Made by a program: the position numbers and the translations under genes. From IMG/VR virus record IMGVR_UViG_3300022748_000006: a DNA stretch of 53,607 nt; one strand, 5' to 3'. Below are positions 3,902 to 52,613 of this stretch, one piece after another. Each line of letters opens with the position of its first letter. Within the stretch, counting starts at the first letter, position 1. This stretch comes from a virus. The notes under the pieces are model-generated. The model saw only the letters and a program-made list of their open reading frames with translations. It searched no databases and was not told where the DNA came from.

Positions 3902-6420
3902 TGGAAGACCTCGACCCCAATCTGGAAATCACCGAGAACGATGACGGCAGCGCCCTTGTGGATCTGCCTGAAATCGAGACGGAAGAGCAGCCGGACGGCT
4001 CGGCCATTGTCACCATCGACGAGGGTGGCCCGGAAGAGAACCCCGACTTCTATGCCAACATGGCCGAAACGTATGACGAGTACGAACTTGGCAAGTTGGC
4101 CATGCGTTACATCGACCTGCTGAAGAAGGACAAGGACGCCCGAGAGCAGCGTGATAAGCAGTACGAGGAAGGCATCAAGCGCACGGGCATGGGCAACGAC
4201 GCCCCCGGTGGCGCTACGTTCATGGGCGCATCCAAGGTGGTTCACCCTGCTATGGCTGAAGGCTGCGTGGACTTTGCGGCCAAGGCCATCAAAGAGATGT
4301 TCCCACCAGACGGCCCTGTCCGCACCAAGGTGCTGGGCAAGATGGACGACATCAAGGCCGAGCGTGCAGAGCGCAAGCGTGACTACCTGAACTGGCAGAT
4401 CACCGAGCAAATTGAAGAGTTCCGCGATGAGCAAGAACAACTGCTGACCCAACTGCCACTGGGCGGCTCACAGTACTTCAAGATCTGGTTCGACGAACAA
4501 AAGAAACGCCCATGCGTGGAGTTCTTGCCAATCGACCGTGTGATCCTTCCCTTCGCGGCAACGAACTTCTACACAGCCCAGCGTGCTGCTGAAGTCCACG
4601 AAATCACCGAGTGGGAGTTCAAGCGCCGTGTGAGCAACGGCATGTACCGCGACATCAATCTGGTGTCGTCGACCATGGAGCCGGAGCAGACCAAAGCACA
4701 GAAAGCCAACGACAAGATCGAGGGCAAGAAGTGGGAAGACAACGAAGACGGCGTGCGCAAGGTGTACCACGTCTACGTCTATCTGGAGTTGGAGGAAGAC
4801 AAGTACAGCAAGGGCGAGATGGCCCCGTACATCCTCATGATCGACGAACTCGACAACGAAGTGGTGGGCCTGTACCGCAACTGGGAAGAGTCCGACGACA
4901 CCATGTCCAAGCTGGACTGGATCGTGGAGTTCAAGTTCATTCCATGGCGAGGTGCCTATGCGATTGGTCTTCCTCACCTTATTGGTGGTCTGTCTGCCGC
5001 TCTCACTGGTTCTTTGCGTGCATTGCTGGACTCGGCTCACATAAACAACGCCGCCACGATACTCAAGCTCAAGGGCGCGAAGATGTCTGGCCAGAGCCAG
5101 CAGGTGGACGTGACCCAGATCGTGGAGATTGAAGGCGCACCCGGCGTGCAGGACATTCGCCAGATCGCCATGCCCATGCCGTTCAATCCACCCTCACAGG
5201 TGCTGTTCCAGCTTCTGGGCTGGCTTGACACAGCAGCCAAGGGCGTAGTGTCCACCAGCGAGGAGAAGATCGCCGACGTGAACGCTCAGGCTCCAGTGGG
5301 AACCACACAGGCTTTGATTGAGCAGGGCGCTGCGGTGTTCTCGTCGATCCATGCACGCTTGCACGAGTCACAGGCCCGTGTGCTGAAGATTCTGTGCCGC
5401 CTGAACCGCTGGCACTTCGACGAGATGCGCAAGTCTGACGTGGTGGCCGACTTGGAAATCACCCGCGACGACTTCCAGAAGAACACCGACGTCATCCCGG
5501 TGTCTGACCCTCACATCTTCAGTGAGACGCAACGCATGGCCCAGATGCAGGCTGTGCTGGCGCTGGCCGACAAGCACCCCGACCAGTTCAACATGAACAA
5601 CGTGTTGGCCCGTTCGCTCAAGCAGATGAAGATCCCCAACATCAACGAACTGATGAAGGACGTCCCGGCTCCAGAGCAGCGCACATCGGCAGACGAGAAC
5701 GCTGCCATGCTCATTGGCCAGCCAGCCTATGCGTACATGCAGCAGGATCACATCGCGCACATTCAGGATCACCTGCAGTTTGGCATGAACCCATTCTTGG
5801 GCCAGTCGCCATTCGCAGACCCGAACTACCTGAACAACCTGATCGAGCACATCAAGCAGCACATGACCCTGTGGTATCTGAACCGCAGCAATGGCTACGT
5901 GGCTCAGTCTCGCGGCGGAAAACCTGTGGACAACTACGACGATCCGCTGCTGACAGGCACCATCGACCAGTTGTACACCACGGTGGGTGCTCATGTGTCT
6001 CTGGACACCAAGGAAGTGTTTGGCCAGTTTGCGCCAGCCTTCCAGCAACTCATTCAGATGGCTCAAAAGCGCCAGCAATCTCAGAAGCAGGCTTTGCCTC
6101 CCGACGCGCAAGTGGTTCACGACACCAGCATGGCCGAGACCCAGCGCAAGGCGCAGGACGACCAAGCCCGTCTGCAACTGGACAACCGCAGACTGCAGGC
6201 GGACATGGCCAAGCACTTGGACGACAACAAGACCAAGATTGCCATCGAGAACGCCAAGCTGACGCACCAGACCATCACGGACATCGCGACAGCAGAAGTA
6301 CCCCCTGCCCCTGCTACCATGGGCGCAGGTCAACCCGGTATGCCAGAAGGTATGCCACAACCTCAAGGTATGCCACAGGGCATGCCACAACCTCAAGGAG
6401 TGCCAAATGGCAACGTCTGA
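3901..6420 (+). CDS. Putative portal protein
   Basis: 839-aa ORF with a TGATG overlap on the upstream stop. Size, position near the terminase and an acidic N-terminus fit a portal. C-terminal GMPQPQ tandem repeats. The family was not verified by search. Confidence 0.6.
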   Translation: MEDLDPNLEITENDDGSALVDLPEIETEEQPDGSAIVTIDEGGPEENPDFYANMAETYDEYELGKLAMRYIDLLKKDKDAREQRDKQYEEGIKRTGMGNDAPGGATFMGASKVVHPAMAEGCVDFAAKAIKEMFPPDGPVRTKVLGKMDDIKAERAERKRDYLNWQITEQIEEFRDEQEQLLTQLPLGGSQYFKIWFDEQKKRPCVEFLPIDRVILPFAATNFYTAQRAAEVHEITEWEFKRRVSNGMYRDINLVSSTMEPEQTKAQKANDKIEGKKWEDNEDGVRKVYHVYVYLELEEDKYSKGEMAPYILMIDELDNEVVGLYRNWEESDDTMSKLDWIVEFKFIPWRGAYAIGLPHLIGGLSAALTGSLRALLDSAHINNAATILKLKGAKMSGQSQQVDVTQIVEIEGAPGVQDIRQIAMPMPFNPPSQVLFQLLGWLDTAAKGVVSTSEEKIADVNAQAPVGTTQALIEQGAAVFSSIHARLHESQARVLKILCRLNRWHFDEMRKSDVVADLEITRDDFQKNTDVIPVSDPHIFSETQRMAQMQAVLALADKHPDQFNMNNVLARSLKQMKIPNINELMKDVPAPEQRTSADENAAMLIGQPAYAYMQQDHIAHIQDHLQFGMNPFLGQSPFADPNYLNNLIEHIKQHMTLWYLNRSNGYVAQSRGGKPVDNYDDPLLTGTIDQLYTTVGAHVSLDTKEVFGQFAPAFQQLIQMAQKRQQSQKQALPPDAQVVHDTSMAETQRKAQDDQARLQLDNRRLQADMAKHLDDNKTKIAIENAKLTHQTITDIATAEVPPAPATMGAGQPGMPEGMPQPQGMPQGMPQPQGVPNGNV

Positions 6421-41528: not shown

Positions 41529-42397
41529 CCACTTTCATCGACTTTGCACGCTCACACGGTGTCGACATCGACCCCAGCAAGCTGTACGCCTCCGACAAGA
41601 TCCGTCGCACTGGCACCGTGGAGAAGCCACGCTCTGACAACGGCGCATTCTTTTGGGATGGCCAGCGCGGCTGGGTGTTCAATTGGTCTGGCGAGGCTCG
41701 GACAATCTGGTACGAAGATCCCAATGCCAAGCCATGGACTGAGCAGGAAAAGCAGGAATGGATGCTCAAGCGCCAGACAGCCGCTGCAGCGAAGAATCGT
41801 TCCTACGACATCGCTGCACAGAAGGCTGACATCACCTTGCGCTCGGCCAAGATGGCCACGCACGACTACCTGCACCTCAAAGGCTTTCCTGACCTTCAGG
41901 CGCTGGTGTTGGACGGCAAGCTGCTGGTGCCCATGCGCAACGTCGTGACCAACAAGCTGCAGGGCTACCAGCAGATTTTTTGGGACATGGACGAACGCAA
42001 GTGGGAGAAAAAGATGCTGCCCGGCATGCGTGCCAAGAATGCTGTGCTGTTCATGGGCGACAGAAGGGCCGAGGAGGCGTGGTTGGTCGAAGGGTATGCC
42101 ACGGGCCTGTCCGTGCAGGCAGCGCTGCGTGCAAGCGGTTCTGGTGCGTCTGTGGTGGTTTGCTTCAGTGCTTCGAACCTGATCCAAGTGGCCGACCAGA
42201 TCCCCGGGCGCAAGTTCTGCTTCGCCGACAACGACGCCAGCGAGACGGGCGAGAAGGCTGCAAAGTCTGCCGGATTGCCTTATGCTATGGCCGACACCAT
42301 GGGCTGGGATGCCAATGACCTCCACAAGGCCAAGGGACTGTTTGCGGTGACGGCGAAGATCATGCAGTGCAAGCAGAAAGCTGCTGTACACTCCTGA
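41525..42397 (+). CDS. Toprim-domain DNA primase-like protein
   Basis: ORF track 41471..42397 trimmed to the ATGA-coupled MTTFIDFARSHG. WLVEGYATGLS .. CFADNDASETGEKAA fits the Toprim E..DxD layout. Confidence 0.7.
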   Translation: MTTFIDFARSHGVDIDPSKLYASDKIRRTGTVEKPRSDNGAFFWDGQRGWVFNWSGEARTIWYEDPNAKPWTEQEKQEWMLKRQTAAAAKNRSYDIAAQKADITLRSAKMATHDYLHLKGFPDLQALVLDGKLLVPMRNVVTNKLQGYQQIFWDMDERKWEKKMLPGMRAKNAVLFMGDRRAEEAWLVEGYATGLSVQAALRASGSGASVVVCFSASNLIQVADQIPGRKFCFADNDASETGEKAAKSAGLPYAMADTMGWDANDLHKAKGLFAVTAKIMQCKQKAAVHS

Positions 42398-42749
42398 CCC
42401 TTCATGAAGGTCGTGCTGGTGGACTGAAAACACCAGCGCCAAAAAGGATGCGTCCTGCCTCTGGGGATTCCCGGGGGGCCGGACAGGGCGCATCCTTGTT
42501 GGTGAGGCTGGTAGCTAATCGGTATCCCTTAAACGCCCATCCAAGCGTGGGGTCGCCAACAACATGCAGGCCGTGTCGCGTAGCAGAGTCCAAGGGCAAA
42601 AGCTGTCTTGGTGGCTCACGGTGAAGAAAATCGCGAACCTACACGCATGGGAGCCGCTGGGCGACGGCCAGCGCGAAGGTGAGTCCAAAGGGCTGTGACA
42701 CGGCCAGCCACACCATCGCGTAAAAAAGGCGGCTCCCGCCAAAAAATTG

Positions 42750-42780
42750 TTGACACACCCAGACCAGTTGTGCTTATAAT
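42750..42780 (+). promoter_or_regulatory. Consensus sigma70-type promoter in the ORF-free region
   Basis: TTGACA (42750..42755) and TATAAT (42775..42780) are both perfect hexamers, with a 19-nt spacer by my count. An A-tract lies upstream. Confidence 0.55.
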
Positions 42781-42787
42781 GCGCCCA

Positions 42788-42914
42788 GCTAGGTGTGAGA
42801 ACCCAAGCAAGTGAAAGCCGTTAAGTCAGATCCCGACCCCGAATGGGGTAGCGCGTCAGCCCAAAAAGCTGGGGTGTTTTCTCACCGGGGTCTGTCTTAA
42901 CGGCTTTTTCTTTT
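42788..42914 (+). ncRNA. Candidate ~127-nt structured RNA with intrinsic terminator
   Basis: AAAGCCGTTAAG (42814..42825) pairs with CTTAACGGCTTT (42896..42907) and is followed by a T-run. Inside are a second 9-bp helix and three hairpins (ACCCC-GAAT-GGGGT, CAGC..GCTG, GGTG..CACC). Confidence 0.45.
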
Positions 42915-43560
42915 GTGTCTTTGAAGATGGTGAATGCGCAGGCTGATGCGTTCCGTCAGGCAGGCCGTGGCCACGGCAGCAGACCTGATCCGGTTCGAGA
43001 GTCGAGGCACCGATAAGCCGGAGATCAGCACCGGCCACCATCTTCAAGGACACACATCTCACACCCAGCCGTCAGGGCGCGTTAGCTGATGGCCGCAAGT
43101 GGGGCTGAACCCGAGAAACCGCGACACGGTATGCAACCGTGGACTTGATGATGATGCGGCGTGGAAGGACACGCTAGGTACGGTGCAGAAACATTCAATG
43201 CGGCGAGGGAGTGACCCGGCGGTCGCACTGCGAAGGTACTGATAGGAAAATGGAGTTGGCTCTGGGGACGCCCATCCAACCGCAGGCGACTGGTAGTGTG
43301 TCGCTGAACCGGAATCAAGCCCGGTCATCATCATCAAGTCCATGGGCTAGGGGGCAGTTCCCGAACAATCCGTGCGGCTGGTCGAATCATCAAGCCGGGG
43401 GCATACGGTATCCAATCCGTAGCATGATGATCCCGTTCATCGGGGGTGAAGCACCTTTCTCCTTCCTTACTCCACCGCCGTGGGGTAGGGGGGGTCTTTG
43501 GGTGAAAGGATTGAGAGGGGGGGGCAGGGCCGACCACGGGATCGACTCGACCCCAAAAAA
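42915..43560 (+). ncRNA. Candidate large structured RNA and/or replication-origin region
   Basis: No credible ORF. An 18-bp helix 42915..42932 / 43036..43053 (one G-U) and a perfect 16-bp helix 43141..43156 / 43326..43341 each enclose further hairpins. G4/G7/G8 tracts at 43482..43529. Confidence 0.3.
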
Positions 43561-43572
43561 ATTTCACCTGAA

Positions 43573-43620
43573 CTCTAATTCCATGTTAGAATTCAAGCAC
43601 CACGACGTTGTGGGTATTAC
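43573..43620 (+). promoter_or_regulatory. Conserved promoter/operator/leader module, copy P1
   Basis: CTCTAATTCCATGTTAGAATTCAAGCAC. Dyad TCTAA (43574..78)-N7-TTAGA (43586..90). Extended -10 TGTTAGAAT. Leader hairpin 43600..43613. Confidence 0.55.
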
Positions 43621-52073: not shown

Positions 52074-52613
52074 GTGACAGACAAGACAGACAAACCCACA
52101 AAGCAGGCCGCGCCCAAAAACAAGGGTGGCAGACAGTCCACATACGACCCAGACATCGCAAAGCAGATGTGTGAGCAACTCAGTGAGGGAATACCACTGA
52201 GGGAAATATGCAGACAGGATGGGTTCCCAGCGTGGCGGACGGTGTACGACTGGATGAAGAAAGATCCCGACCTTGCCACAGCCATCGCGTATGCGCGTGA
52301 CGTGGGATACGACGCCATGGCCGAGGATTGCTTGGTGATCGCCGACACCCCGATGATGGGGGAAGAGGTGAGCGAGAGCGAGGATGACGAGGGCGTCAAG
52401 CGTGTGACCATCAAGAAGGTGGACATGCTGGGGCACCGCAAGCTGCAGATCGAGACCCGCCTGAAGCTGCTGGCCAAGTTCAACCCCAAGCGTTACGGTG
52501 ACAAGCTGGTGCATGCCGGTGACGACGTCAACCCGGTGGTGGTGGAGAACAACCACAATGTCTTTGGGGAACTCCTCAAGAACCTGAAGATGCAGCGCCA
52601 AGCCGAGCAATGA
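52074..52613 (+). CDS. terS: Terminase small subunit
   Basis: 179 aa with a GTG start after GGAAGGAAG. GGRQSTYDPDIAKQMCEQLSEGIPLREICRQDGFPAWRTVYDWM is a typical HTH N-terminus of this terS class. ATGA-coupled to terL. Confidence 0.8.
   Translation: MTDKTDKPTKQAAPKNKGGRQSTYDPDIAKQMCEQLSEGIPLREICRQDGFPAWRTVYDWMKKDPDLATAIAYARDVGYDAMAEDCLVIADTPMMGEEVSESEDDEGVKRVTIKKVDMLGHRKLQIETRLKLLAKFNPKRYGDKLVHAGDDVNPVVVENNHNVFGELLKNLKMQRQAEQ

Follow-up and report, generated by a model that had tools for sequence, protein, structure and literature searches.

A predicted pseudoknotted small RNA, bracketed by a promoter and a putative terminator, next to replication genes in uncultured freshwater phages

The locus

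The DNA analysed here, called the window throughout, is the whole 53,607-nt stretch of the IMG/VR virus record IMGVR_UViG_3300022748_000006. Positions 42398-43631 form a non-coding stretch, with the next ATG at 43632. The gene block that begins there has its own conserved promoter at 43563-43592 (TTCACC-N18-TAGAAT, with a TG-extended -10), and the small terminase gene lies further on, at 52074-52613. An earlier note on this DNA, made from its letters and open reading frames, had singled out 42750-42914 as a perfect promoter driving a cloverleaf-like RNA of about 127 nt with its own terminator. The features of the interval are given below in order of position.

42728-42740 and 42741-42746, + strand: upstream hairpin GGCGGCTCCCGCC and A-tract, just 5' of the -35 (sequence reading)
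42750-42755 and 42775-42780, + strand: sigma-70-type promoter TTGACA-N19-TATAAT (sequence reading and conservation in homologues)
42788-42808, + strand: P1, 5' hairpin, GCTAGG (42788-42793) with CCAAGC (42803-42808), one A.A mismatch, loop 42794-42802
42795-42801, + strand: 5' strand of the pseudoknot, GTGAGAA, in the P1 loop, pairing with 42879-42885
42814-42825, + strand: 5' strand of P2, AAAGCCGTTAAG, the outer stem that closes the terminator, a perfect complement of 42896-42907 (12 bp)
42827-42835, + strand: 5' strand of P3, CAGATCCCG, 9 bp with 42886-42894, one U.G
42836-42849, + strand: P4, hairpin ACCCC-GAAT-GGGGT, stem nearly invariant
42851-42877, + strand: P5, hairpin of variable sequence with an A-rich loop, CAGC..GCTG inside, in 36 of 36 homologues
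42879-42885, + strand: 3' strand of the pseudoknot, TTCTCAC, pairing with 42795-42801 (covariation, duplex energy)
42886-42894, + strand: 3' strand of P3, CGGGGTCTG, pairing with 42827-42835
42896-42914, + strand: 3' strand of P2, CTTAACGGCTTT, pairing with 42814-42825 and continuing into the T-run
42905-42914, + strand: T-run TTTTTCTTTT, directly after P2
42915-43055, + strand: optional long hairpin of 141 nt, helix 42915-42932 with 43036-43053 (18 bp, one G.U)
43056-43069, + strand: a' site ATCTCACACCCAGC, pairing with the 5' strand and loop of P1 (42788-42800)
43070-43515, + strand: large non-coding RNA, 'class A', with a conserved core, indels that are not in triplets and an optional insert at 43139-43340

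A conserved promoter and a predicted intrinsic terminator bracket the small RNA

Both promoter hexamers of the window are perfect, and they stand 19 nt apart, against 16-18 nt in the sigma-70 definition. The earlier note had read TTGACA at 42750 and TATAAT at 42775 as the sole perfect pair, with this same spacer, and the count agrees: TTGACA-N15-20-TATAAT occurs once in the 53.6-kb window, where 0.01 matches are expected. Of 38 homologues, 37 have TTGACA, and agreement with the consensus reaches 11 or 12 of 12 positions in 36. Spacers of 19 nt occur in 18 of these loci and spacers of 18 nt in 16. Such conservation of a promoter argues for function. A spacer of 18-19 nt exceeds the E. coli optimum, and the strength of the promoter is uncertain for that reason; high expression of an RNA of about 125 nt is suggested by the promoter only. 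P1 begins 6-12 nt past the -10 across the 38 homologues, and transcription probably starts near 42787, about 7 nt past the promoter. When the promoter pattern alone was used as a query against viral contigs, it returned two unrelated chance matches and nothing else.

Several loci add elements on the 5' side. A-rich tracts precede the -35 in several homologues, and the A-tract at 42741-42746 of the window sits at the position of a proximal UP element, a role it may play. Directly upstream of the -35, many loci carry a terminator. The hairpin GGCGGCTCCCGCC of the window has A6 on either side, and the terminator scan reports it on the - strand only; it would terminate transcription of that strand alone. 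No leftward genes lie near this hairpin (42728-42746).

At the 3' end, the GCC/GGC base of P2 runs into TTTTTCTTTT, placed as in the earlier note, and this stem followed by a U-run matches the definition of an intrinsic (Rho-independent) terminator. A run of at least five T follows the P2 stem in every aligned homologue. A simple terminator scanner missed it because the 'loop' here is a folded domain of 80 nt. Termination at this site would give the 3' end of an RNA of about 120-128 nt. The small RNA holds no conserved ORF. It is not a tRNA either: ARAGORN finds no tRNA gene in the window and Rfam no tRNA at gathering score or at E <= 10, while the two recover six tRNAs in a related locus (L001). 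On both points the earlier reading is borne out. Its view of a self-contained transcription unit stands in part, since the near-consensus promoter and the T-run are conserved, but in most loci a large non-coding RNA follows about 10-20 nt beyond, with no promoter between.

Covariation defines a three-way junction and a pseudoknot

The 130-nt RNA folds at -65.9 kcal/mol, compared with -37.1 +/- 3.8 for shuffled sequences (z = -7.7), and the fold of the reverse strand is weaker (z = -5.5). A covariance model finds a single copy in the window, at 117.6 bits on the + strand and 37.3 bits on the - strand. The main alignment comprises 38 homologues, sampled by protein and thus unbiased by pattern. 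MAFFT misplaces P1 and the pseudoknot in the class with a GUGGCA loop, so an alignment to the model (A5) was used. In it, standard pairs fill 95.1% of pair cells, and compensatory changes are seen at 25 of 39 pairs, a level that 0 of 500 shuffles reach; the kinship of the sequences inflates this and the permutation statistics below. When partner columns are slid by one to three positions, pairing falls to 32-52%. Failure of homologous regions to keep the helices through compensatory changes had been named in the earlier note as grounds for discarding the RNA, and kept they are.

P2 and P3 are jointly 99.9% paired, with compensatory changes in 13 of 20 pairs. They correspond to the 12-bp and 9-bp helices first read from the letters; the former is perfect (42814-42825 with 42896-42907), and the latter, at 42827-42835 with 42886-42894, includes one U.G. 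P3 alternates between U.G and C.G at two positions and therefore points to RNA of the + strand only. The two hairpins already recognised inside the outer helices also stand. One is P4, whose stem (CCCC/GGGG) is 96% paired with 1 compensatory pair and whose loop is not conserved under unbiased sampling. The other, CAGC..GCTG, lies within P5, where a hairpin of at least 4 bp is found in 36 of 36 distinct homologues with unrelated stems (mean z against shuffles, -3.4). For P1, compensatory changes occur in 6 of 6 pairs and 83% of cells are paired, in an alignment fitted to the model. A third hairpin had been proposed between GGTG (42873-42876) and CACC (42883-42886); this pairing would use C42886 of the 9-bp helix a second time, and the homologues do not preserve it. 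The four-way junction of the earlier note thus had one arm wrong, and P1 (42788-42808) and the pseudoknot had been overlooked.

The pseudoknot joins the P1 loop to the strand just before the 3' side of P3. It lies outside the model, and 91% of its cells are paired, with compensatory changes in 5 of 8 pairs. The cognate duplex has an energy of -9.5, compared with -6.5 +/- 0.3 for permuted partners, and 0 of 5000 permutations are as low. Covarying strand pairs include GUGGAA/UUCCAC, GUGAGAA/UUCUCAC, GUGGCA/UGCCAC and UUGGAA/UUCCAA, and the helix is 7-10 bp long. The sequence of the P1 loop varies freely among relatives (GUGGAA, GUGAGAA, GUGGCA, UUGGAA, GUAGUGG and others). Conserved positions lie almost all in helices, and no conserved single-stranded segment was found among the aligned homologues. 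The predicted core is a three-way junction with an H-type pseudoknot, in which all long strands are base-paired. The loop complementarity fits an intramolecular H-type pseudoknot, and it may also serve pairing between molecules.

The family is common in one group of phages and shares its slot with unrelated modules

The search of Rfam that the earlier note had suggested returned no family, either in the whole window at gathering score or in 42350-43640 at E <= 10 (Rfam 15). On 30 related loci Rfam recognised only tRNAs, Betaproteobacteria-1 and int-alpA, and the small RNA went unmatched. Two exact-pattern scans of 185,579 representative bacterial genomes gave 0 matches, and so the host is not readable from prophages; the sole host lead is similarity to Acidovorax phage AP1, which is without the small RNA. 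The family is thus new to the libraries searched, namely Rfam 15 and the representative bacterial genomes. A 2023 survey of structured RNAs in IMG/VR (PMC10690425) gives 8,495 predicted, unnamed candidates, and this set may already include the motif.

Among GenBank phages the element is shared by MW202545 only, a 57-kb phage from a freshwater spring. It has the same TTGACA-N19-TATAAT, and its copy lies beyond the primase gene, where it immediately follows an array of six tRNA genes. An exact core pattern matches 43 IMG/VR contigs. In the pattern-found loci the element follows ParB, helicase and primase genes in 13 and lies beside Sak and exonuclease genes in 8. Because that set is biased by the pattern, a second sample was taken by protein only: 80 contigs with a primase 61-79% identical to that of the window, which with L047 make 81 loci. 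The covariance model was built from the pattern-found set and then run on the protein-sampled loci. It matched the + strand just past the primase gene in 66 of the 81, with 46 matches scoring 72-125 bits and 20 weaker variants. That these elements form a structured RNA family is near certain, and we take the one in the window to be a genuine RNA gene.

The 15 loci left without a model match were also informative. Wherever the available sequence was long enough, the slot turned out to hold another module built to the same layout, as listed here.

L051, L054, L056, L076, L117: type 2 modules, unrelated sequence, same slot
L062, L067, L070, L088, L100, L126: type 3 modules, unrelated sequence, same slot
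L096 and L098/L108: other modules in the slot, unrelated sequence

These alternative modules measure 90-165 nt. In each, the promoter is followed by a 5' hairpin, with a loop that pairs to an internal strand, and the module is completed by a closing stem and a T-run. The cores of types 2 and 3 differ from that of type 1, the family of the window, and none of the modules is in Rfam. TTGACA-N19-TATAAT is present in most type 2 and type 3 modules, and the modules lead on to the large RNA. The type 2 module of L054 went undetected by the covariance model and was found on reading; in L087 a protein gene comes immediately after a similar module. At least three sequence-unrelated modules of one layout point to a selected mechanism rather than shared ancestry alone. 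What is conserved is a design and not a seed sequence, which argues against both a base-pairing sRNA with a fixed target and a metabolite aptamer.

A large conserved RNA follows, and the P1 loop has a second potential partner

In most loci a long conserved non-coding stretch begins about 10-20 nt past the T-run. It is of two kinds, class A or Betaproteobacteria-1 (RF02932), and the latter comes directly after the small RNA in seven loci (L001, L011, L036, L062, L067, L076, L098). The 3' core of class A, 43345-43520 in the window, is 82-98% identical in nucleotides in 53 loci, compared with 61-79% identity in protein for the primases, and its indels are not multiples of three. Class A contains hairpins with some compensatory pairs, and its insert at 43139-43340 is closed by ACTTGATGATGATG/CATCATCATCAAGT. 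Rfam gave no match for it. Between the T-run and the large RNA (42914-43070), neither a scan nor sequence reading revealed a promoter, and class A is presumed to be a second product of the transcription unit of the small RNA. The closest cultured relative, AP1 (helicase 66% identical, host Paracidovorax oryzae), has the downstream large RNA and no small module; the module is therefore dispensable for the large RNA.

Just ahead of the large RNA lies the a' site, which can pair with the 5' part of P1, strand and loop together. When 42786-43070 is folded as one RNA, the structure of minimum energy has this a:a' helix as the closure of the entire region (z = -9.7). In about 19 of 31 distinct type 1 homologues, the best pairing for this part of P1 is found in the stretch that adjoins the T-run on its 3' side, and the site, for example UUUUCCAC-NCC-NAGC, covaries with P1. 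The cognate a:a' energy is -13.6; permuting the partners gives -11.4 +/- 0.4, and 0 of 5000 permutations are as low. When partners were sought over 330 nt, the duplex energy was not better than in shuffled controls. As that comparison did not discriminate, tests of position and permutation were adopted, and the a:a' helix is supported by these two tests only. The site is missing or unconvincing in about 40% of type 1 homologues, and a sub-clade whose loop reads UUGGAA has it only weakly or not at all. In modules of the other types it stands out only slightly from permuted partners, of which 100 in 3000 are as low. RNAfold is unable to weigh the pseudoknot against a:a'.

In the window the optional hairpin 42915-43055 separates the T-run from the a' site, which is thereby displaced to 43056-43069. 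The hairpin is common to L017 and L040, partly present in L055, L064 and L009, and absent in most homologues. It would fall inside the a:a' closure, as an expansion segment would.

A proposed model of the unit

Taking these results together, we propose that the locus is an RNA-only unit, in which a strong promoter leads to a pseudoknot-locked, leaky terminator and yields an abundant RNA of about 125 nt plus a rarer long RNA that shares its 5' domain. We give this reading a probability of about one half. Host sigma-70 polymerase would start about 7 nt past the near-consensus promoter with its A-tract. The nascent RNA would fold P1, then P4 and P5, and the strand just before the 3' side of the stem would pair with the P1 loop, forming the H-type pseudoknot. 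P3 and P2 would then zip into a stem of about 21 bp that ends in the U-run, where most polymerases would terminate. The expected product is a compact RNA of about 125 nt with both ends in helices, shaped as a rod of P1, pseudoknot, P3 and P2 with P4 and P5 as side arms.

Read-through would carry the other polymerases on through the a' site and into the large conserved RNA. P1 could then open in the resulting long transcript: its 5' strand and loop would re-pair with a', the pseudoknot strand would be freed, and the small RNA would become the closed 5' domain of the long RNA. Such a cassette would give the large RNA a strong promoter, protected ends and a fixed ratio of short to long product. 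What the sequences show is the promoter, the helices, the pseudoknot, the T-run, synteny, the alternative pairing and the lack of a further promoter; termination efficiency, read-through, the conformational switch and any biological role we infer.

A wider proposal is more tentative, and we judge the odds to lie somewhat against it. In it, large ornate phage RNAs of a class not yet described (about 0.45-0.75 kb) would have several exchangeable 5' cassettes, the 125-nt RNA among them, each with a strong promoter, a leaky terminator locked by a pseudoknot, and a closing helix. Cassette and large RNA would form an RNA-only operon beside the replication genes of Comamonadaceae-type siphoviruses, with the pseudoknot/a:a' switch setting isoform ratio and conformation. 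By analogy with GOLLD, ROOL or pRNA assemblies, the same switch could also involve intermolecular pairing.

Several other readings were weighed against the proposed unit. In the one closest to the earlier note, the RNA of about 125 nt acts independently in trans, either pairing with host or phage targets or serving as a decoy of a host RNA-binding protein (Hfq, ProQ, an RNase, a defence sensor), and the large RNA is unrelated. Its own conserved promoter and terminator would suit this, as would the terminator that many loci have upstream as well, the compact fold with A-rich P5 loops and a U-tail, and the one sub-clade without a'; the near-invariant G/C-rich core of P3-P4 could bind a protein. 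No seed is conserved as a single strand, however: the sole long loop is taken up by the pseudoknot, and its sequence is freely variable, which leaves the role suggested in the earlier note without support. The three or more unrelated modules in the slot argue for an architecture and not for recognition of a fixed target, and a large RNA follows with no promoter between. We regard a trans-acting RNA as unlikely, though not far-fetched. It is improbable that the transcript instead activates or primes replication at an origin, as at the lambda origin, the T4 R-loop origins or with ColE1 RNA II. The element always lies in a replication or recombination module, and in the clade of L008 there are 7.9 copies of a 9-nt repeat at the -35. 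Tandem repeats occur in only 3 of 66 distinct upstream regions, with none in the window, and no AT-rich unwinding element is nearby. A role at the level of DNA or of an R-loop would also leave selection for the pseudoknot, P1 and P5 unexplained.

Two regulatory schemes have lower odds still. In antitermination of the lambda PR'-tR' or put type, the short RNA would be made until a phage factor, or the RNA itself, allowed read-through into later genes. A strong promoter followed by a terminated transcript of about 125 nt is what such a scheme would have, the unit lies between the replication genes and the region leading to the small terminase gene, and AP1 encodes an Xre-family regulator. Yet PHROGs, run on 30 flanking ORFs (8 also with Pfam), revealed no antiterminator family and no RNA-binding partner, a weak negative given that most small ORFs are unannotated. 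The genes downstream have their own conserved extended -10 promoter, the terminator leads to conserved non-coding RNA of about 450-600 nt and not to late protein genes, and in L008 the unit meets convergent genes; we consider antitermination very improbable. Least probable of all is a ligand-sensing riboswitch or attenuator controlling the downstream RNA. The combination of a pseudoknot with a terminator is suggestive of one, and on reading, the near-invariant CCGACCCC, GGGGU and CGGGGUC permit alternative pairings. A binding pocket would require conserved unpaired nucleotides, of which there are almost none. Modules of types 2 and 3 differ in their cores, an antiterminator alternative is not apparent, Rfam has no match, and in most loci no coding gene lies directly downstream.

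Comparison with known phage RNAs

The CI RNA of P4 and the C4 RNAs of P1 and P7 are likewise small cloverleaf-like phage RNAs with a loop complementary to sites in the same transcript. In P4, seqB is complementary to seqA and seqC, and a constitutive promoter gives mostly short terminated transcripts. The P1 loop described here matches both an internal strand and a', much as seqB matches seqA and seqC. C4 and CI RNAs are cut from a leader by RNase P, and their targets are ribosome-binding sites or terminators of protein operons. The small RNA is instead bracketed by its own promoter and predicted terminator, and its downstream partner precedes a non-coding RNA. The C4 antisense family of Rfam has no match in 42350-43640 at E <= 10.

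The unit of PR', 6S RNA and tR' in lambda shares with the locus a strong constitutive promoter, a short terminated transcript and the early/late layout of a siphovirus. It differs in having no conserved RNA fold, Q directly upstream and promoterless late genes, none of which was seen here. The pRNA of phi29 is similar in size (about 120-170 nt), in having its own promoter and a three-way junction, and in covarying loop complementarity. It belongs to phi29-like podoviruses that package by the protein-primed route, whereas the phage of the window has a terminase and no Rfam match.

GOLLD, ROOL and Betaproteobacteria-1 (RF02932) occupy the same niche, non-coding islands of phages that often lie beside tRNA arrays (as in L001 and L054). 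They are long, intricately folded RNAs. The small RNA stands apart as a 5' cassette, equipped with a promoter and a terminator of its own; we know of no description of such a cassette for any of the three. Where Betaproteobacteria-1 occurs, in other loci, it adjoins the small RNA and is distinct from it. None of these three families, nor pRNA, matched the window at gathering score or 42350-43640 at E <= 10.

Few structured non-coding RNAs of phages have been characterised, and this one has unusually strong comparative support and is found across nearly all of a group of uncultured freshwater phages. That the P1 loop is able to pair either inside the terminator domain or just past the terminator is an unusual layout, and to our knowledge no known regulatory RNA matches this opposition of pseudoknot and closing helix. 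In conservation, the large RNA surpasses the proteins encoded beside it. A new function of RNA in the replication of phages or in takeover of the host could come to light at this locus.

Sequences flanking the unit

In L008 the unit ends at a terminator that faces convergent genes, and its only products are therefore RNAs. At 4547-4617 of the same locus, 7.9 tandem copies of the 9-nt TTTGCCCCG abut the -35, with GGGCAA just downstream; this clade-specific array could represent iterons or operators.

The interval between the primase gene and the small-RNA promoter holds further elements. Six-tRNA arrays lie in it in L001 (4380-4955), L054 (5065-5583) and at the 3' end of L073; with such arrays inserted before the promoter, the slot is a non-coding RNA island. 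A repeated element, CCAACACGCATGGGGA ... TCCCCAGCCGTGTTGG, occurs there in 1-3 copies and forms a long-range inverted repeat around a variable insert. It is present in L047, L073, L077 and L121, and its 3' half in L016, L032, L044 and L123; the window has only a degenerate form, within 42398-42740.

On the other side, an inverted repeat TCTAA..TTAGA overlaps the promoter of the next gene block (43563-43600). L001, L006 and L044 have the same TGTTAGACT -10 within different inverted repeats, which suggests a covarying operator.
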